From Abditibacteriaceae bacterium (GTDB lineage Bacteria; Armatimonadota; Abditibacteriia; Abditibacteriales; Abditibacteriaceae), in assembly GCA_031425655.1 (NCBI GenBank), contig JANPJS010000223.1:1-15942 (forward strand): a stretch of DNA of 15,942 nucleotides. Reading direction: 5' to 3'. Below, piece by piece: positions 7,016 to 15,939 of the stretch (position 1 is the first letter of the stretch; every line of letters begins with the position of its first letter). Both the position numbers and the translations under genes were made by a program. Below the pieces are notes generated by a model. It worked only from the letters and a program-made list of their open reading frames with translations. It was not told the origin of the DNA and ran no database searches.

Positions 7016-7657
7016 TTATTTAGTCGAACCCATGGGCTTCATGACCTGGTTCAGCGCCGTGGCCATCTTTTCCAGACTGCTCACAGCTTTGTCAATTGCG
7101 TCATAGGTTTGTTTAATGCACAGCATTTGCGGAGGAGATGCACCGCCACTCAGCGCATCAGTCGCCTGAAGCAAAGCCATCAAGTCGCCGCGCAAGCTTC
7201 TCATAGCCTTAGCCGTTTGATAAATAGCAGTCCTGCTGACTTTACCATCCGCCGGCAGAATGCCCTTGCCGCTCTTGTTCAACTTGGCAATATCCCCGGT
7301 AACTTTGTTCATTGCCTGATGGTATTGCCGCACCATGGGCGAATCCGGGAAGTTGGTGGTCACGCATTGGTCAGCCGCAGCAAAATCGCTGGCGGACAAT
7401 CCCATCGCGCCGGTTGACAGGTCTTGAAGGGCGCCTTGCATATCCGCCGGCAATCCGGCAAAGCCGCCGCCGAAGGCGAATTCGTTGGCGCCGGATGTCG
7501 TAGCCAGATGCGTCACGACGCCACCTGTTACATTGGACTGAAACCCACCCTGCTGCGCCATGGCCACGCCGCTGACCATGATGTTGGCCAGCAGGCACGT
7601 TGCCACGGATAGACGCTTTGCCAGTCGAGAAAAACGCTGATCGTTCATTGTTTGCAT
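7016..7657 (-). CDS. Secreted hypothetical protein, predicted mostly alpha-helical, 213 aa
   Basis: GGAG SD 6 nt upstream of the ATG. Signal peptide ending VAMA|QQ. Amphipathic helical C-terminal half; two Cys in the mature region. Co-oriented and 25 bp from the upstream gene. Confidence 0.8.
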   Translation of the reverse strand: MQTMNDQRFSRLAKRLSVATCLLANIMVSGVAMAQQGGFQSNVTGGVVTHLATTSGANEFAFGGGFAGLPADMQGALQDLSTGAMGLSASDFAAADQCVTTNFPDSPMVRQYHQAMNKVTGDIAKLNKSGKGILPADGKVSRTAIYQTAKAMRSLRGDLMALLQATDALSGGASPPQMLCIKQTYDAIDKAVSSLEKMATALNQVMKPMGSTK

Positions 7658-7682: not shown

Positions 7683-8654
7683 TTAATAACCAAAACGGTA
7701 GGCGGCACCGATAGTGAAACGTGTGCCGTCACCGGCACGATTCGCCACGTCAACAAAAGTGGGTGTGATAACCAAAGGCAGTCGCTTGAAAGGCACAAGC
7801 GAAACTCCGAGGTTCAAATCCTGCCCGGTCCATTCTGCAAAAGGACGCACATAACGACTCGCTTGCAAAGCAGCGCTGCCGAAAATCCCCACGCCGTTGT
7901 CGCCGGCGAAAACATCCTGCTCCGATTGGAAACGACCGTTGCCAAGACCTAACGACAAATGCAGTCGGCTAAAGGATTGACGGGCATCCTTTTTCAGGTC
8001 AATCTGCTTTGTCACAACGCCGTAAAAGCTGCGGCGCTGGTCGGAAGTCTTATTAATCCCAATCGCATCATCGGCGCCAAAAGCGACCGCCCAATTGTTG
8101 TTGAGAGGCCGATGTATCTTGAAGCTCAGTGACGTTCGACGGCCAAAACCGCCGCCTCCGGTTCCACCATTGTTGGAGAGATCCAAAATGTTCAATGCCA
8201 AGTCCACGCCTACGGTCTGCGGACTCCCAAAACTCATTACCAAGCCGGCCACAGCATCGTTGTTATTTGCGTAACGCACACGATCTTGATACGCGAAACC
8301 AACCGCGCCCAACCCTTTGAAGCCGCCATAAGCCACGGGCGTATTGGCAGTTAGGCCGGGCACAATCGCTTCCATCAATGGCGGCGAGGACGGAACATCC
8401 ACGCCTTGTAAGCGCTGCTGAAGCTGTGTTCTACGCGCTATCATCTCCTGCACGATTGCCGCATTGGGAGCCGGTATACCGACCTCTGGCTGGGGAAAAC
8501 CACGCGTGGAAGCGCCGGCAATCGGCACATCGCCGGGAAGCACCACACCACTTGCGTTTCCTTGCGCCGAGGCAGAGAAATGAGACGAGTTCATGAGGAG
8601 CAATGCCGCACCGGCCAAACTTGTCCTCACACTACTTTTTTTGCAGAAATCCAT
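7683..8654 (-). CDS. Putative outer-membrane beta-barrel protein of unknown function, 323 aa
   Basis: Start reassigned to ATG 8654, with SD AAGGAGA 7 nt upstream. Signal peptide ending ASA|Q. Pro-rich linker followed by many alternating amphipathic strands. Aromatic C-terminus FTIGAAYRFGY resembles a BAM beta-signal. Confidence 0.75.
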   Translation of the reverse strand: MDFCKKSSVRTSLAGAALLLMNSSHFSASAQGNASGVVLPGDVPIAGASTRGFPQPEVGIPAPNAAIVQEMIARRTQLQQRLQGVDVPSSPPLMEAIVPGLTANTPVAYGGFKGLGAVGFAYQDRVRYANNNDAVAGLVMSFGSPQTVGVDLALNILDLSNNGGTGGGGFGRRTSLSFKIHRPLNNNWAVAFGADDAIGINKTSDQRRSFYGVVTKQIDLKKDARQSFSRLHLSLGLGNGRFQSEQDVFAGDNGVGIFGSAALQASRYVRPFAEWTGQDLNLGVSLVPFKRLPLVITPTFVDVANRAGDGTRFTIGAAYRFGY

Positions 8655-8726
8655 TAAGGTTTCTCCTTCAATCAAGATGGTTTCGACAACAACGATTCGG
8701 CGGCCACATCGCTAAAGCATCATGCG

Positions 8727-8983: not shown

Positions 8984-11900
8984 TTACAACACAGTGACGG
9001 ACAATCCATGACTATCAATAGCGAAATCGAAAAAGCGCGCGTGCTGGTTCGGAGGGGTTTCCTGTAAGGCACGGCGAATGTGAAGTGTTGCCGCTTCGTC
9101 GCGGGCCAGCATGAGTATGAATCCGCCGCCGCCGGCGCCACACACGTTGCACGCCGCCAAATAAGGCCGCACGCGCGCAATGATTGTCTCAATGTTGTCG
9201 TTGGTGCTACTCGGATCGAGAGCCTTTTTCAATTCCCAATACTCCGCGAGACAATCACCAAAAGTGCGAATATCATTGACTTCCAGCGCATGTTTGGCCG
9301 CAGCGGCGCCTCGTTTCAAGCGAGCGATGGTGGCCATGACTTCCGGCTCGCGCGCTAAATAGCGGCTCAAAACATTGTGCAATATATCTTTGGCCAAGCG
9401 CTTTTGTCCGGTGAAATAAAGCAGCATGCGCCGATGCACTTCATTGGCTTCGGGGCCGGAGCCGCCAATGCTCGTCCATTGCAAAGTCGGTTTTTGCTCA
9501 ATGCCGGGCTGCGTCGTAATGAATTTCACGCCGCCTACGATGCCGCCGATTTGATCTTGCCAACCGCCGCCACTGGTCATGCGCTGCTCCAACAATGTGG
9601 TTCGAGCAATCAAATCAGTCTGAATCATTTCGCCGCCGTTCACGCGCGACAGACACGAAATAATAGCTGCGCCCAAAATGCTGCTGGTGCCCATGCCGCT
9701 GCCCTTGGGCAGTCCGCTAAAAAGCGTCAGGTCTAAGCCGCCGCCCAGCGTTTCCAACCAATCCACGAAGAGTTTGTCGCCCTTTGCGGCGTCTTGCGGA
9801 GCCATGGTGTGCGGGTCGGGGACAATTCCGGCCAAAATGAGCGCTTCTTTTGCTAATCCGCTCCAATGGTCTAATTTTATCGTTTGCAAAAACGGCGTCA
9901 GATCGCGATAAATTTCCTGACGCCCCAAATCAATGCTGGTCAGTCGAATGCAGCGCTCATCGTTCAATTTGGCGATGACTTGAAGAGGATATTGCCGGTT
10001 CAGCGTAACCGCGGCGTTGAGCACGGCGCCGCCCTGCTCGAAACAAATAGGCGGCGTATCAGTCCAGCCTCCGGCGAAATCAATGCGGGCCGGCGCCGTG
10101 ACCCACACAGTTTGATCGTGCAAAATAGCAGCGGGGCGGGGCGCAGTTGGAAGATCGATCACGTCTTCGACCGCTTTAGCGATCAGATGAAAAGCGGCGC
10201 TATTGAAATCGGCAGCGCGTTTTACGGGAAAATCGGCGAAGCGCGTGGCTATCGCATACGATTCGCTCATCCGCAAATCGTTCTGCGCCGGTGCGGAAGC
10301 CGGTGCTGAATGAAACTCACTTTCCGCTAACTCCGCGATCAGGGCCGCAACGCGGAATAAGCGGGTGCGTGTCAAGGGAGGCAATTGATCGGGGTTTGGA
10401 AAGCGTCTGGCCAACTGCGCCATCAACCTTTGCAGCGACGAAACGGCTTTTCCCGAACTCAAGGCGCTATCAGGAACACAAAGCGAAATTCTCTTCAACG
10501 CTTCAGCCGCCGGAAAATCATCGTGTTCTAAAAGTTCGTCTAAAATACGCCGGCAATCCATAATGCGGCTGATTTCATGGCGATACTCAAACAGTTTTTG
10601 GGAATCCACAGCTTTTATCAACTCGGCCAGACTGTAACGCGGTTGATCGCCCCAAACCTGCAGAAGCTCGCTCGCCGCGTCTGCGGCGCCGTCACTCATG
10701 ATGTCCCGCAAAAGCTGCATCGCTTTCCACTTGTGGTCGCCGGTCAGCCACAAGCGCGCAAACCACGTTGACTTCTCGTCTTCCTCATTCCACAGCATCT
10801 CTGCGCCGATTCCAGCATCAATCAGCCTGCGAATGGAGTGATTCAGGAAAAGACAGCGCCCGGAATCGAGCGTGCGCTTGTTGTCATCGTCTACGCCGAA
10901 TAAAACCGGCACGCAAAGGGCATCGCCGACCGCGTCTTGATGCAGAGGCCGAACCGGCAGGCAAACCAGCCCGATTCCTACGGGAAAATGCAAGTCGAAT
11001 GCTTGGCTTTCGGCATTTGCGCTGCCCCACCCGATTAAGACGTTGTTGCCTTCTAAAACCAGTGGACGCGCTGGGATTTCCTGATCCAATACGCAGCCTT
11101 CGATATAAGCGCGGCCCTTAATGTCGAGAACATCAAGGTTTCCCGTCGTATTAAAAATGGTCGGGCCGGTGTGTTCTCGTAAACGATGCGATGTCACTTC
11201 ATCAAGATCGTCATCGGTGCGATGCCCGTTTTTAAAGGCAAACAAGCGTGCCGTGCGACTTGGCGCCGTGAATTTGTTGAGAAGGTCGCGTGTCGTTCCG
11301 ACGTGAAAGAACTCGCCGTCGGGCACCGCAACCACGTTAAAAGGAAGCTTCGCCGCGCGAATTTTGTCGTAAAAACGGCCTAAGACACGCCGCGCGACCG
11401 AGTTTTGATGAACAGCGGCGATGCTTTCGAGATAGCCGGAGCGGGAAATTTCCGTCGGCAAAGCCAACATGATTTCCTGATATAAATCCACCGTTCCCAC
11501 TTGCCCGTTGAGAATGGCGGAGTGCAGCCCTGCGCCGATTTTCACGCCACGTTTGCGCGCTTCGATTCCTGCTGCGCTTAATAAAGTCTCCACCGCTGCC
11601 GGCGACAAGCACAAAACGCCGGAGTCCACCAAAATTCGTCCCGTCGGGTCTACGGCGTGTTGCTTGACCATTTCGTCGCGCGTCGGCTTTTGCAGAAAAT
11701 TCGTCACCGGGCCGCCGATGCTGGGATTGGGCGTGAGATAAACGCCATGCTGCTCGCCGACACTCGGCGGCGCCGCGAAGCCCAGTCCGGTGATGCCCGA
11801 CGGCGTTTGTAAATCCGTGCGAGCCGCATCGAAAGTCAATAAAACGTCGCCGGAACAAATGATAACCTGCCCTTCGTCAGCCGCAGGAATTTTGCCCAGA

Positions 11901-12301
11901 GTTTGAACCAGCAAGTCGAAAAGCGAAGCCGGATAACGATTCCACGCCGGCTGACCCGACGGAACAATATCGCAGGGCATCGGCATGAAAATTTTGCCCA
12001 GAGCAGCGTAAGCCGGCAGCCGGCGCGCATCGCCACCAGAGTGCGCGATCAAAACCCGGCGGCCCTGAAAGCGTTCGGCGAGCGTTTCTCCGCGCGAAAA
12101 AAGGGACGACGCCAACTCCGTCAGCACCATCAATGTGCTGCCGCCCGAACCCACGCGCCTGCCGTCCGGGTCGGCGATCACGCGCCAGATTACACCCGGC
12201 GCGAGTTGGCCGCGTCGCTCCCGTTCCGTTAATTGCTGACGATAAACCTGCGCTTGAGTCTCGCTGGCCGCCGTCAACACGATTACGTCGAATGTCTTCA
12301 T
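8984..12301 (-). CDS. fkp: Bifunctional L-fucokinase / L-fucose-1-phosphate guanylyltransferase (GDP-fucose salvage enzyme)
   Basis: N-terminal nucleotidyltransferase motifs DPDGRRVGSGG, HSGGDARRLP, SGDVL, HGVY, FLQKP and FFHVGTT. C-terminal GHMP kinase motifs PARIDFAGGWTDTPP, LPKGSGMGTSS, GGGWQDQ and GAGGGG. ATG 12301 is preferred over TTG 12325, which overlaps a TATAAT box. Confidence 0.88.
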   Translation of the reverse strand: MKTFDVIVLTAASETQAQVYRQQLTERERRGQLAPGVIWRVIADPDGRRVGSGGSTLMVLTELASSLFSRGETLAERFQGRRVLIAHSGGDARRLPAYAALGKIFMPMPCDIVPSGQPAWNRYPASLFDLLVQTLGKIPAADEGQVIICSGDVLLTFDAARTDLQTPSGITGLGFAAPPSVGEQHGVYLTPNPSIGGPVTNFLQKPTRDEMVKQHAVDPTGRILVDSGVLCLSPAAVETLLSAAGIEARKRGVKIGAGLHSAILNGQVGTVDLYQEIMLALPTEISRSGYLESIAAVHQNSVARRVLGRFYDKIRAAKLPFNVVAVPDGEFFHVGTTRDLLNKFTAPSRTARLFAFKNGHRTDDDLDEVTSHRLREHTGPTIFNTTGNLDVLDIKGRAYIEGCVLDQEIPARPLVLEGNNVLIGWGSANAESQAFDLHFPVGIGLVCLPVRPLHQDAVGDALCVPVLFGVDDDNKRTLDSGRCLFLNHSIRRLIDAGIGAEMLWNEEDEKSTWFARLWLTGDHKWKAMQLLRDIMSDGAADAASELLQVWGDQPRYSLAELIKAVDSQKLFEYRHEISRIMDCRRILDELLEHDDFPAAEALKRISLCVPDSALSSGKAVSSLQRLMAQLARRFPNPDQLPPLTRTRLFRVAALIAELAESEFHSAPASAPAQNDLRMSESYAIATRFADFPVKRAADFNSAAFHLIAKAVEDVIDLPTAPRPAAILHDQTVWVTAPARIDFAGGWTDTPPICFEQGGAVLNAAVTLNRQYPLQVIAKLNDERCIRLTSIDLGRQEIYRDLTPFLQTIKLDHWSGLAKEALILAGIVPDPHTMAPQDAAKGDKLFVDWLETLGGGLDLTLFSGLPKGSGMGTSSILGAAIISCLSRVNGGEMIQTDLIARTTLLEQRMTSGGGWQDQIGGIVGGVKFITTQPGIEQKPTLQWTSIGGSGPEANEVHRRMLLYFTGQKRLAKDILHNVLSRYLAREPEVMATIARLKRGAAAAKHALEVNDIRTFGDCLAEYWELKKALDPSSTNDNIETIIARVRPYLAACNVCGAGGGGFILMLARDEAATLHIRRALQETPPNQHARFFDFAIDSHGLSVTVL

Positions 12302-12324
12302 AAATTTATCGGCTGGCAATGTCA

Positions 12325-12395
12325 ATTATATAACCAACGGCGCGGATTTTAGAAAGCGAGATTAATCAGAAACGGGCGTAACCAATGGGTATAAT
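12325..12395. promoter_or_regulatory. Back-to-back putative sigma70 -10 boxes for the divergent fkp and esterase/glycosidase units
   Basis: Perfect TATAAT on the minus strand at 12325-12330 and on the plus strand at 12390-12395, in an AT-rich gap. No convincing -35 boxes. Confidence 0.45.
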
Positions 12396-12443: not shown

Positions 12444-12598
12444 GAAAAGTCCCCCTCCCCTTGCCGTTTTAAGGCGGGTGCCCTCTGGGCAAGTGTTAGG
12501 GTGGGGTTCTGCCATTCCCCGAACCCCATCCCACCTGCCCAGAGGGCACCCGCTTCCCCTTGATACGGCAAAGGGGAAGGGAGCCACCAGCACTTTTC
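12444..12598. repeat. 155-bp composite inverted-repeat element (REP doublet / MITE-like) containing two inverted copies of the TGCCCAGAGGGCACCCGC core
   Basis: Terminal GAAAAGT (12444-12450) / ACTTTTC (12592-12598). Imperfect outer arms 12450-12474 / 12558-12582. Perfect 18-bp arms 12474-12491 / 12536-12553. Inner stem 12499-12509 / 12521-12531. Sub-hairpin CTTCCCCTT (12553-12561) / AAGGGGAAG (12571-12579). Confidence 0.85.
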
Positions 12599-12617
12599 TA
12601 AGAAATTCCAGACTGCT

Positions 12618-13502
12618 TTGGCTCTCACTATGCCTATTTGTTCACAAATTCGCGCCACCCCCAGCCTATTTCCTGAACCGATTTTGCTGTGGCCGGATGG
12701 CGCGCCTGATTTGAAAGCCGGCATCGGCGAAGAACACGACACCACACCGCCCGACCCGAAAATGCCACTCGAACAGCACGTCATTCGTTTGGGCAACGTG
12801 ACAAAGCCGGCGATCACGGTTTTTCGCCCGGCGCCCGAAAAAGACACCGGCGCGGCGGTCGTGGTTTGTCCCGGCGGCGGTTATAACATTCTGGCTTATA
12901 ACCTCGAAGGCAGCGAAATCTGCGCGTGGCTCAATTCCATCGGCGTGACCGGCGTGCTGCTCAAATATCGCGTGCCGGGACGCCTCACCGCGCAATATCG
13001 TGCGCCGCTGCAAGACGCACAACGCGCTCTCGGATTGGTGCGTTTTCACGCGAAAGACTGGAATATTGACGCAAAGCGCGTCGGGATTCTCGGTTTTTCA
13101 GCGGGAGGCCATCTTGCGGCAGCCGCCGGCACCAATTTCGAGACGCGCGCTTACGCCCCGGTTGACGACGCCGATAACGAAAACTGCCGGCCCGATTTCA
13201 CGATCTTAATTTACCCGGCCTATCTCACAACCGAGGATTTAACGACGCCCGCGCCCGACATCAAAGTAAATGACAAAACGCCTCCGGCTTTCATCGTGCA
13301 AACGCAGGACGACACGGTTCAGGTCGAAAACGCCTACGTTTACGCGCTGGCCTTGAAAAACGCCAAAGTCGCCGCCGAATTGCACGTTTATCCGACCGGA
13401 GGCCACGGTTACGGTCTGCGACCTTCCGGCAACGCCGTTTCACAGTGGCCGCAGCGCGCGGCGGAATGGCTTGCGGTGCAAGGCTGGCTCAAGGCAAAGT
13501 AA
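12618..13502 (+). CDS. Alpha/beta-hydrolase, probable carbohydrate (acetyl) esterase
   Basis: Oxyanion motif CPGGGY, LKYRVP, nucleophile elbow GFSAGGHL, Asp in QDD and His in GGHGYG. The start is uncertain (TTG 12618 or ATG 12630, no clear SD). Confidence 0.87.
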   Translation: MALTMPICSQIRATPSLFPEPILLWPDGAPDLKAGIGEEHDTTPPDPKMPLEQHVIRLGNVTKPAITVFRPAPEKDTGAAVVVCPGGGYNILAYNLEGSEICAWLNSIGVTGVLLKYRVPGRLTAQYRAPLQDAQRALGLVRFHAKDWNIDAKRVGILGFSAGGHLAAAAGTNFETRAYAPVDDADNENCRPDFTILIYPAYLTTEDLTTPAPDIKVNDKTPPAFIVQTQDDTVQVENAYVYALALKNAKVAAELHVYPTGGHGYGLRPSGNAVSQWPQRAAEWLAVQGWLKAK

Positions 13503-13507
13503 ACATC

Positions 13508-14344
13508 ATGCGAAACATCACTCACTTTTTACTTTGTGCCGCGCTTATCGCTTTCATGGCTCCGGTAGCGCGGGCGACGGCGTGGGAGGTTTATCTGCTG
13601 GCCGGGCAGTCGAACATGGACGGGCGCGGCAAAATGTCTAATCTCAGCGAAGCGCAGCGGGCGCCGCTCGAAGACGCCTGCATTTTCTACCGCAATCCGC
13701 CGGCAACCAGCGACGGCTGGAAGCCGCTGGCGCCGGGCTACAGCATGGCTCTGGGCTATAAAGGCACGCTGCCGTCGGCGACTTTCGGCCCCGAAATCGG
13801 CTTCGCGCAGGCCATCACGAAGGCGCGCCCCGGCGACCATCTGGCGCTGATTAAAGGCTCGAAGGGCGGCAGCAGCCTGTCGAAAGATTGGAATCCCGGC
13901 CTCAAAAATCAGTCCGAAACTCACGGCTTTTGCTACCGCAACTTCCTCGAAACTGTCGAATTGGCGAAGAAAGCTCTGCCCGGCGGCGATACATTCGTCA
14001 TTCGCGGCGTTTTATGGCATCAGGGCGAATCGGACTCCGGTTCGAGCGTCGAGCTTTACCAGCAGCGATTGACGACGTTTATCGCGCGCTTGCGCGAAGA
14101 CCTCGACCAGCCGAATTTGCCTTTCGTTATCGGCGAGGTCTTCGATAACGGCAAGCGCGATTCCGTGCGCGCCGCACAACGCGCCGTGGCCGCAGCCATC
14201 CCGCACACGGCGTTCGCTTCCGCCGCCGACCTGAAAACTTCCGACGCCGGCACGCATTTCGATGCCGCCAGCCAGATTACGCTCGGCGAACGCTTCGCCG
14301 CCGCGCTGCTGCCACTCTTCAACGAGGCGACTCCAAAACCATGA
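13508..14344 (+). CDS. Secreted SGNH-type O-acetylesterase (SASA / CE6-like sialate or xylan O-acetylesterase), 278 aa
   Basis: Start reassigned to ATG 13508, 5 nt after the upstream stop. Signal peptide ending VARA|. Motifs LLAGQSNM, FGPEIGF, WHQGESD and DAGTHF. Confidence 0.88.
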   Translation: MRNITHFLLCAALIAFMAPVARATAWEVYLLAGQSNMDGRGKMSNLSEAQRAPLEDACIFYRNPPATSDGWKPLAPGYSMALGYKGTLPSATFGPEIGFAQAITKARPGDHLALIKGSKGGSSLSKDWNPGLKNQSETHGFCYRNFLETVELAKKALPGGDTFVIRGVLWHQGESDSGSSVELYQQRLTTFIARLREDLDQPNLPFVIGEVFDNGKRDSVRAAQRAVAAAIPHTAFASAADLKTSDAGTHFDAASQITLGERFAAALLPLFNEATPKP

Positions 14345-14355
14345 AACGGCGATAC

Positions 14356-14411
14356 TTTTAATGGAACACGGATTTACCTGCCCAGAGGGCGAAGCCCGTG
14401 TTCCATTGAAA
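14356..14411. repeat. Intergenic palindrome carrying the CCTGCCCAGAGGGC core at its apex
   Basis: 12-bp perfect arms AATGGAACACGG (14360-14371) / CCGTGTTCCATT (14396-14407), extendable by T/A pairs. Core at 14377-14390. Confidence 0.85.
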
Positions 14412-14431
14412 ACTGTTAGCACCATCACCCC

Positions 14432-15886
14432 ATGAAATCAGAAAAACTCAAAAACCAGAAAACAGGCCAATCGCGGCGCGAATTTTTGCAGAATTCGGCC
14501 ATCACGGGCCTCGGCGCATTGGCTCTTAACGGCGCGACTTCGGCAGCGGATAAAAGCGTTGCCTCACCTGCCGCAAACGCCAGGCTCGGCGCCACACGAG
14601 CGCGTCCGAAAGGGCAAAAGTCGGTGCATAATCTCACCACCAAGCCGCTGAACAAAGTGCGCGTGGCGGTCATCGGCTGCCATCGCGGTTCCACGCACGC
14701 ACACGACGCCGCAGCGGTTGAATTCTCCGAATTGGTGGCCGTCTGCGATTGGCGAAAAGAACGCGCTGATGCCGTGGCCAACAGCGTCGTGAAAAATCGC
14801 GGTCGAGCGCGGCCCGAAGTTTACGGCGGAACCGAGCATATTTGGGAAAAGATGGTTGACCGCGACGACATTGACGCGGTGTATATCGCCACGCCGTGGG
14901 AATGGCACGTCCCGATGGCGATCCGCGCAATGGAGCGCGGCAAACACGCCTTTATCGAAGTCTCGGCGGCAGTTACGGTCGAGGATTGCTGGAAGCTCGT
15001 GGACACCAGCGAGCGCACGCAGCGCCATTGCGTGATGCTGGAAAACTGCTGTTACGGCGAAAACGAACTCTTCGTGCTGAACATGGCGCGTCAGGGCATT
15101 TTCGGCGATTTGCTGCACGGCGAATGCGCTTATATTCACGATCTGCGCGGCTTACTTTTCGATTTGGGCAGCGAAGGCGAATGGCGTCGCAACTATCACA
15201 CGCAAATGGACGGCAACCTGTATCCGACGCACGGCTTAGGCCCGGTCGCGCAATATCTGAGTCTCGGACGCGGCGATCAGTTTTCGTATTTGGTTTCGCT
15301 GAGTTCACCCGAACGGGGACTAACCAAATGGCGCGATGAGCACAAACCAAATGGCGGCAAACACGCCGGCGAGCGTTACCTTTGCGGCGACATGAACACC
15401 ACGCTGATTAAAACCGCGCAGGGCCGCAGCATTATGGTGCAGCACGACGTTGTCAGCCCGCGCCCGTATTCGCGCATCAATATGCTGTCAGGCACCGGCG
15501 CTACCTTTCTTGATTATCCGGCGCGCCTGACGATAAACAAGCCCAAACAATACGAGCTGAAATCCGGCGGTTCGCACGATTGGCTCAACGGCGAAGATAT
15601 GCAAAAAATGCGTGACAAATTCACGCATCCTTTGTGGAGCGGCCTGCGCGACGCGGCCAAAGGCGGCGGTCACGGCGGCATGGATTTCGTGATGAACTAT
15701 CGCCTGCTCGACCGCATTCGCAAAGGCCAAACGCCCGACAGCGTGGTTTACGACGCCGCCGCGTGGAGCAGCATTCTTGAACTTTCGTCGCGTTCCGTAG
15801 CCAGCGGCAGCCTGCCGATAAACATTCCCGATTTCACACGCGGCGCCTGGAAAACGCTTCCGCCTGCGCCCATTGAAGGCGTTTAA
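14432..15886 (+). CDS. Tat-exported NAD+-dependent glycoside hydrolase family 109 (alpha-N-acetylgalactosaminidase-like; Gfo/Idh/MocA fold)
   Basis: Twin-arginine signal SRREFLQ. Rossmann start VRVAVIG. Motifs IATPWEWH, MLENCCY, NLYPTHGLGP, GDMNTT, PRPYSR and the GH109 catalytic GGHGGMDF. Confidence 0.9.
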   Translation: MKSEKLKNQKTGQSRREFLQNSAITGLGALALNGATSAADKSVASPAANARLGATRARPKGQKSVHNLTTKPLNKVRVAVIGCHRGSTHAHDAAAVEFSELVAVCDWRKERADAVANSVVKNRGRARPEVYGGTEHIWEKMVDRDDIDAVYIATPWEWHVPMAIRAMERGKHAFIEVSAAVTVEDCWKLVDTSERTQRHCVMLENCCYGENELFVLNMARQGIFGDLLHGECAYIHDLRGLLFDLGSEGEWRRNYHTQMDGNLYPTHGLGPVAQYLSLGRGDQFSYLVSLSSPERGLTKWRDEHKPNGGKHAGERYLCGDMNTTLIKTAQGRSIMVQHDVVSPRPYSRINMLSGTGATFLDYPARLTINKPKQYELKSGGSHDWLNGEDMQKMRDKFTHPLWSGLRDAAKGGGHGGMDFVMNYRLLDRIRKGQTPDSVVYDAAAWSSILELSSRSVASGSLPINIPDFTRGAWKTLPPAPIEGV

Positions 15887-15894
15887 GAATAAAC

Positions 15895-15939
15895 CACGGA
15901 TGAATCCTGCCCAGAGGGCGCCCGATAAACACGGATTTT
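15895..15939. repeat. Degenerate 10-nt tandem repeat (CACGGATGAA / GCCCGATAAA / CACGGATTTT) interrupted by the CCTGCCCAGAGGGC core; runs to the window edge
   Basis: Units at 15895-15904, 15920-15929 and 15930-15939. Core at 15906-15919. 15906-15924 matches 12534-12552 at 18 of 19 positions. Confidence 0.75.

Follow-up and report, generated by a model that had tools for sequence, protein, structure and literature searches.

A 20-nt mobile micro-element nested in other repeats of an Abditibacteriaceae genome

How elements of only 20 nt move has been, to our knowledge, an open question since the report of small dispersed repeats (SDRs) in 2008. The question is raised again by a stretch of 15,942 nt from an Abditibacteriaceae bacterium of the phylum Armatimonadota (contig JANPJS010000223.1 of assembly GCA_031425655.1; referred to as the window), in which a short hairpin motif recurs within larger host repeats. 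An earlier note, made from the letters alone, had proposed a candidate ultra-small mobile element. Here, we ask what the repeated unit is, what it does to the sites in which it is found and what may move it. The feature is a non-autonomous mobile micro-element, a conclusion in which we place high confidence, and it takes the place of a 5-nt slot with a 20-nt product.

SDRs are 21-27 nt long, sit within tandem heptamers, other repeats and themselves, and show filled and empty sites as well as compensatory changes of their structure. SDR1-8 were reportedly described by Elhai et al. (2008) in Nostoc and its relatives.

Unit, copy number and hairpin

Within the window, the 12-mer TGCCCAGAGGGC occurs exactly four times, i.e., at 12480-12491 on the minus strand and from 12536, 14379 and 15908 on the plus strand. 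The mean over shuffled windows is 0.07, and none of 200 shuffles reached four occurrences, such that the four copies reported earlier are real. The same 12-mer is found 201 times as an exact match in the 5.98-Mb genome of the window (G000 in our labelling), while Markov models predict between 0.39 (order 2) and 4.3 (order 6) copies. The genome-wide enrichment that the earlier note had suggested as a check is thus present, along with sharp ends and dozens of unrelated hosts.

The unit comprises 20 nt, namely two variable 5' bases and a sharply bounded 18-nt core CTGCCCARAGGGCRCCCG. This corrects the earlier length of about 15-20 nt; in addition, the copy at 14376-14391 turned out to be cut at its 3' side and a fifth, sister element lies at 47-69. 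The information content is about 2 bits within the core and below 0.4 outside. A search with a 19-position pattern yielded 222 copies without a mismatch, 85 with one and 25 with two mismatches genome-wide (about 330 in total), while the reversed genome gave no match with up to two mismatches. Copies are split between the strands 112 vs. 113, and 315 of 332 are intergenic according to gene calls made with a simple script of our own rather than a standard caller.

With regard to structure, the core had been described as a hairpin. Taken alone it is not unusually stable (fold z of -1.9 and -0.5), and its support comes instead from compensatory changes in the outer stem pair, which is G-C in 291, A-T in 34 and unpaired or other in 11 of the 336 family matches. 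Loop stems covary in relatives, and the wider family retains the stem with a varying loop, its sister elements being 21-24 nt long. On the top strand the stem accepts U-G wobble. The hallmarks of miniature inverted-repeat transposable elements (MITEs), i.e., terminal inverted repeats and a target-site duplication, were not found; there is an internal hairpin only, and target bases are lost. The two 20-mers tested contain no stop codon on either strand, and in-frame copies within coding sequence give PAQRAP and related peptides, which the earlier note had proposed to look for.

Many other small variable hairpin modules (GCTTCGC, GGCTTCGCC and CCTACGG types) occur within the same host repeats throughout the genome and are possibly micro-elements as well. 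A small element with a terminal inverted repeat of about 19 bp is inserted in the loop of one copy (G000:C138 near 6806, minus strand).

Filled and empty sites and their hosts

We compared filled sites with empty forms, i.e., host contexts that lack the element. Both kinds of site, as asked for by the earlier note, are found: among 230 distinct contexts, 145 have an empty counterpart in the genome, most often with a gap of 4 nt (102 of the 145). If the base before the pattern is counted in, 123 of 203 contexts from 45 target families fit a 5-nt slot. This slot starts with C in all 123 cases; its product opens with T in 75, C in 25, A in 22 and G in one of them. Under stricter criteria, an empty form remained for 87 of 148 contexts, and the slot measures 5 nt in 74 of these; the slot's first base is C in 74/74 and the base before the core is C in 71/74. 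That is, the net change is +15 nt with no target duplication, and the usual product consists of T, the slot's first base and the core. Read from left to right, a filled site is best described as the left flank followed by one added base, the first base of the slot, the 18-nt core, which stands for the other four slot bases, and the right flank.

Copies from Thermomicrobiales genomes (see below) often have TA or TG as the two bases before the core, and where the slot begins with A or G, the result is mostly TA or TG. A rule by which the target C changes to T or A was dropped for an extra base plus a kept base given these data. In both phyla the extra base is more commonly A after C (17/53 vs. 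6/61, and 8/17 vs. 1/21), counts in which kin are not independent. Among 30 hand-picked sites outside repeats, 22 have A just before the slot and 23 have T as the extra base.

Empty sites are also available as orthologues. A tRNA-Arg(TCG) gene within a tRNA array measures 87 nt in G000 and 72 nt in G013; tyrS of G000 contains two members of the element family, at two sites, each of which makes it 15 nt longer than in 3/3 congeners; and dxs contains one, being longer by 15 nt than in 3/5 relatives, where G002 shares a decayed copy and G005 has an indel of its own at that place. These differences are gains. An Rfam scan matched tRNAs only. Both tRNA arrays consist of closely spaced genes (G000:C61:85-845, locus L012; G013:C45, locus L011), and the interrupted tRNA-Arg(TCG) is the only such gene called in G000.

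Target sites are associated with other repeats. Within 12 nt of a repeat lie 248 of 305 intergenic copies, compared with 4609 of 20000 random intergenic C sites (23%), a figure that is inflated by the spread of filled repeats. This is the stricter version of the test, as a laxer one proved too lax (background 2358/5000). The hosts are repeat types that flank GxxExxY, DUF559, GIY-YIG and Y1 genes in G000, as well as heptamer tandems like those beside a four-helix-bundle gene. Some hosts that hold one or two copies together with other small modules we take to be attC-like sites (G000:C29:5000-5100, C16:49080-49230). The element also nests in itself, namely at the Thermomicrobiales loci L161, L170, L174 and L178. 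In G160, the copies in the nine regions examined all occupy one slot of one host repeat.

The suggestion that the element targets hairpin-forming DNA found no support. Over the 45 target families, the slot shows no common pairing state and its mean pairing does not differ from that of neighbouring positions, whether DNA or RNA parameters are used and on either strand, and copies also reside in tandem heptamers, decamers and coding sequence. In-frame copies from Thermomicrobiales and viral contigs lie in IS256, IS4/IS5, ISAs1-type, IS66, Tn3, portal and protease genes. All five matches in IMG/VR fall in phage genes (portal, prohead protease), where they mark target sites; among the open reading frames (ORFs) listed for three of the five loci, no enzyme was recognised. 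Four pairs of homologous transposase-like genes are filled at the same codon, with flanks that are 44-68% alike over 180 nt, and the junction bases differ in two of the pairs (TA vs. TG). A fifth pair (89% alike) was left out, since it probably reflects common descent. The pair L023/L169 we take to be transposases by motif, L169 having no Pfam match. At one IS256 site, the empty homologues have C at the slot, which rests on the unpublished genome G045. Insertion hot spots thus exist.

As side observations, whole host repeats with the element inside them are part of predicted genes on contigs C13, C109, C150, C202 and C267 of G000; one such gene presumably starts like an alanyl-tRNA synthetase. 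Another copy (G000:C135 near 1006, L234) sits at what we take to be the conserved acidic motif of a broken IS1-like frame without Pfam match.

The window features are listed in Table 1. All four copies are intergenic and their host repeats differ, in agreement with the earlier description, and for three of the four sites empty counterparts exist elsewhere in the genome. No empty allele of the window sites was seen in the contigs of four runs, which proves nothing. The truncated copy probably goes back to a deletion between the two arms of its host doublet. The CCCCTT/AAGGGG doublet type of 12451..12581 is found elsewhere in the genome beside DUF559 genes. The genes of the window are sugar and envelope genes and none of them has a mobile function, i.e., as noted before, no enzyme lies in cis. 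Two further ORFs (7016-7657 and 7683-8675) look secreted and have no Pfam match.

Table 1. Element copies, host repeats and neighbouring genes in the window (REP, repetitive extragenic palindromic)
Feature	Positions	Strand	Remarks
Micro-element copy	12475..12494	-	Junction bases A,C and core with one C-to-T change; empty host slot 12x elsewhere in genome
Micro-element copy	12533..12552	+	Junction bases A,C and full 18-nt core; empty host slot 28x elsewhere in genome
Micro-element copy, 3'-truncated	14376..14391	+	Single match for such a form in the genome
Micro-element copy	15905..15924	+	Junction bases T,C and full core, in CACGGAT decamer tandem; empty slot 4x elsewhere
Sister element, longer loop	47..69	+	Stem ACCC-GCAAGC-GGGT, within GATTCCTCGAC/CGGAATGAC repeat
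Host REP-like doublet, CCCCTT/AAGGGG hairpins	12451..12581	.	Fold z -9.6; two arms with one copy each, in different slots
Host inverted repeat AATGGAACACGG	14360..14408	.	Type flanking GxxExxY (PF13366) genes in the window's genome
Host decamer tandem AACCACGGATGAA...ATAAACACGGAT	15893..15938	+	Type flanking one GxxExxY gene (contig C126)
Fused fucose pyrophosphorylase/GHMP kinase, 1113 aa, ordinary	8984..12325	-	Neighbour gene, outside element
Alpha/beta hydrolase	12618..13502	+	Neighbour gene, outside element
Sialate O-acetylesterase family	13445..14344	+	Neighbour gene, outside element
GH109/Gfo-Idh-MocA	14432..15886	+	Neighbour gene, outside element

Carriers, an IS110 guest and related small repeats

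Among 41 relatives, 10 carry the element, including 3/3 congeners (122, 25 and 46 copies), 4/6 genomes of another genus and two singles; none of the 16 relatives outside the family has it. Further Abditibacteriaceae records show the same element in the same host repeats. The same core is present in 12/12 genomes of one Thermomicrobiales family with 1-89 copies each (G045 and G348 being unpublished), but it is multi-copy in only 2 of 301 sampled genomes of their phylum, the Chloroflexota. Repeated matches were also obtained in Herpetosiphonaceae and Chloroflexia records, among the matches listed. Single matches in other phyla resemble chance matches in coding sequence and are left out of account. 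This patchy distribution suggests transfer between phyla.

A sister subfamily with an A-T stem matches in 25/41 relatives, in about 10 of them clearly above control. It reaches 127 copies in G039 from another family of the phylum and is present in at least 124 metagenome stretches.

In G000, the element is in turn the target of an insertion sequence (IS) of the IS110 family. We found 10 junctions for the right end of this IS and 9 for its left end, all abutting element halves (G000:C101:5162-5552 and 18 others), with the middle of the IS being unassembled. CT cores border the IS on the left and on the right, and its ends share a sub-terminal inverted repeat of 9 bp; among the left ends, one represents an internal remnant. 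A PF02371 domain (C101:5343-5531, E 7.5e-16) adjoins a junction. Within the left end, 9 nt match the left half of the target, and 7 nt match its right half as reverse complement. These guide-like matches flank an inner stem, and in the predicted fold both guides pair partly with each other. The layout would correspond to that of IS110 bridge RNAs, which have a left guide and a reverse-complement right guide (PMC11208160, in excerpt). The likeness to the REP-targeting IS621 in the same excerpt covers PF02371, the CT core and, with the guides here being putative, a 9-nt left guide and a reverse-complement right guide in a long left end; the difference is that the target here is a mobile 20-mer in many unrelated hosts and not one REP family. 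In the other carriers G001, G003, G017 and G044 the right-end junction pattern was not found, and G002 has one loose, chance-like match. Judged from these sequences, the IS110 would use the element and not make it. A supposed third element of 30 nt proved to be a remnant of an IS110 end. The earlier note had overlooked this targeting, together with the replacement of 5 nt by 20 and the sharing across phyla.

Concerning known small repeats, the likeness to SDRs proposed earlier is borne out by size (about 20 nt), dispersal, nesting in heptamers, repeats and itself, a compensatory hairpin, and filled plus empty sites. By description, the element thus appears to work like an SDR. The phyla differ, being Armatimonadota and Chloroflexota here. 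Rickettsia palindromic elements (RPEs) are longer than the micro-element. The latter is much shorter, lacks the CGTC tag and is mostly nested in repeats; what it shares with RPEs is in-frame insertion into housekeeping genes, here tyrS and dxs (PMC3733652, in excerpt). With REP/REPIN sequences and their RAYT (TnpA-REP) enzymes, as presented in parts of PMC3116915, PMC8266576 and PMC3733652, it has in common a short hairpin, an unpaired end tetranucleotide and a mostly extragenic, partly intragenic location. In contrast to these, its tag is CCCG/CGGG, not GTAG or CGTC, its stem has 4-5 bp, it enters other repeats as a single unit and it does not flank the six Y1 genes inspected. The element is neither a GTAG/CGTC REP nor a MITE. 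SDR elements are mentioned in PMC3116915, and SDR5 inserts precisely between bases 3 and 4 of HIP1 according to the part of PMC4390886 that covers it, i.e., without target loss, while the micro-element replaces 5 nt by 20 and loses four target bases. We found no account of this family in the literature; the SDR report of 2008 may bear on the novelty of the junction rule.

Possible origin of the copies

The overall best explanation is, in our view, one trans-acting pathway that copies the element in with replacement, plus the spread of repeats; we give it an even chance. Four target bases would be lost and the 18-nt hairpin core would take their place, with the upstream base being kept or matched and an additional base, for the most part T or, after C, A, appearing one position further upstream. 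This outcome may arise if the target is nicked or cut in a staggered way and DNA is then synthesised on a donor hairpin. We favour this over cut-and-paste because target bases are lost, no duplication arises and the junction base is poorly templated. Once in a repeat, copies would be multiplied by the repeat's own spread and by gene conversion, and persistence in genes would be aided by a net change of +15 nt without a stop in any frame.

As for the enzyme, an HUH/Y1 (RAYT-like) nickase acting with a host polymerase is the candidate least at odds with the data, tentative as it is, since the other strand of the element presents a CGGG tetranucleotide followed by a short hairpin, i.e., the REP layout. 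RAYT cleavage is tag-guided, and HUH cleavage leaves a 3'-OH able to prime synthesis (PMC8266576, in excerpt). It is also conceivable, if rather improbable, that a dedicated new DNA-writing enzyme replaces four bases by a fixed 18-nt tag plus an untemplated base with a bias to mobile DNA, and has moved between phyla. This would fit the range of mobile-DNA targets, i.e., repeats, attC-like sites, tRNA arrays, prophage genes and conserved transposase codons.

Several observations weigh against the trans-acting pathway or its HUH candidate. The kept-base rule is broken in one Thermomicrobiales host family (slot G, product A), and the tRNA of G013 has T rather than C as the slot's first base. None of 125 metagenome contexts of the A-T sister subfamily has T at its junction, and for this reason we claim the junction rule for the 20-mer only. 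Within-genome empty sites are paralogues and not proven ancestors, copies of one host family are not independent events, and no new insertion was caught happening. No gene family is enriched beside the copies (358 of 4354 predicted genes are near a copy, 8 of them on both sides). Y1/HUH genes occur in 24/25 family genomes, so that their presence is uninformative; the element was not found beside the Y1 genes at four scanned loci and two read by eye, and the inspected Y1 genes carry other repeats. Known RAYT chemistry explains neither the 4-nt loss nor the extra T. With regard to the co-occurrence proposed in the earlier note, none of RVT_1, DUF559, GxxExxY and HUH/Y1 tracks the element: DUF559 (16/25 genomes at E 1e-15) was not found in any of the six genomes of a genus with the element in four, and GxxExxY (23/25) is too common to discriminate. 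SRAP is found in 21/25 genomes and not in the carriers G002, G015 and G019.

Could copies arise by short-patch recombination only, such that filled sites convert sites with a few bases of similar flank and no dedicated enzyme is involved? The repeat adjacency of intergenic copies is in line with this, and short local homology could explain the same-codon filling in the four transposase-like pairs. However, recombination cannot give one 5-to-20 geometry in 45 unrelated target families, a tRNA, tyrS and dxs, and homologous filled sites carry different junction bases (TA vs. TG). We thus consider it unlikely as the sole cause; its role is probably to amplify existing copies within families rather than to found new ones. 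RNA-templated writing, i.e., target-primed reverse transcription of a small RNA with target loss and an untemplated base, appears less likely still. The junction signature resembles that of non-LTR elements and group II introns, and the stem accepts the U-G wobble on the top strand. Yet RVT_1 (PF00078) has no match in G000, G001 and G002 (97, 85 and 93% complete), a profile that divergent reverse transcriptases could escape, and only a weak match with a stop in the congener G003. It occurs in 27/41 relatives and 19/24 family genomes, not in the top carriers. Moreover, no master locus with conserved flanks was found among 22 unique-context copies or partial matches.

The host repeats flank exactly those genes (GxxExxY, DUF559, GIY-YIG, Y1) whose nucleases might cut them, and this speaks for capture of an abundant oligonucleotide during repair of such cuts. 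Different nucleases would not leave one geometry, though, coding targets have no such nuclease site, and the LigD primase-polymerase was not found in 5/5 carriers; we regard this origin as very unlikely. A further reading, in which the IS110 inside the element has left it behind as a footprint or product, would agree with all 19 junctions abutting element halves. This is highly improbable, as the junctions duplicate the CT core like an ordinary IS110 insertion into an existing site and as the element is present in five carriers (G001, G002, G003, G017, G044) where the right-end junction pattern was not found or is chance-like. Finally, a fixed part of one longer repeat, or mere chance, has next to no probability: passenger travel is possible for the G160 copies, which share one host repeat in nine regions, but for G000 the reading is refuted by 201 exact matches vs. 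at most 4.3 expected, 45 target families and empty orthologues.

For the movement of 20-nt elements, the case offers a precisely defined product, in which 5 nt turn into 20 nt and a junction base varies, as the basis of a test. It comes with orthologous empty sites in essential genes, with the same core in two phyla for comparative enzyme hunting and with negative searches for the usual reverse transcriptase (RVT_1) and for LigD in high-copy carriers. For its hosts, the element is a source of 5-residue insertions in proteins. With the IS110 aimed at it, there are three nested levels, i.e., repeat, micro-element and IS, and nature would here provide a plain example of a guide RNA redirected to a different mobile element. 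A dedicated enzyme, if true, would amount to a short-insert editor of natural origin and might serve the host to mark or disable mobile elements.

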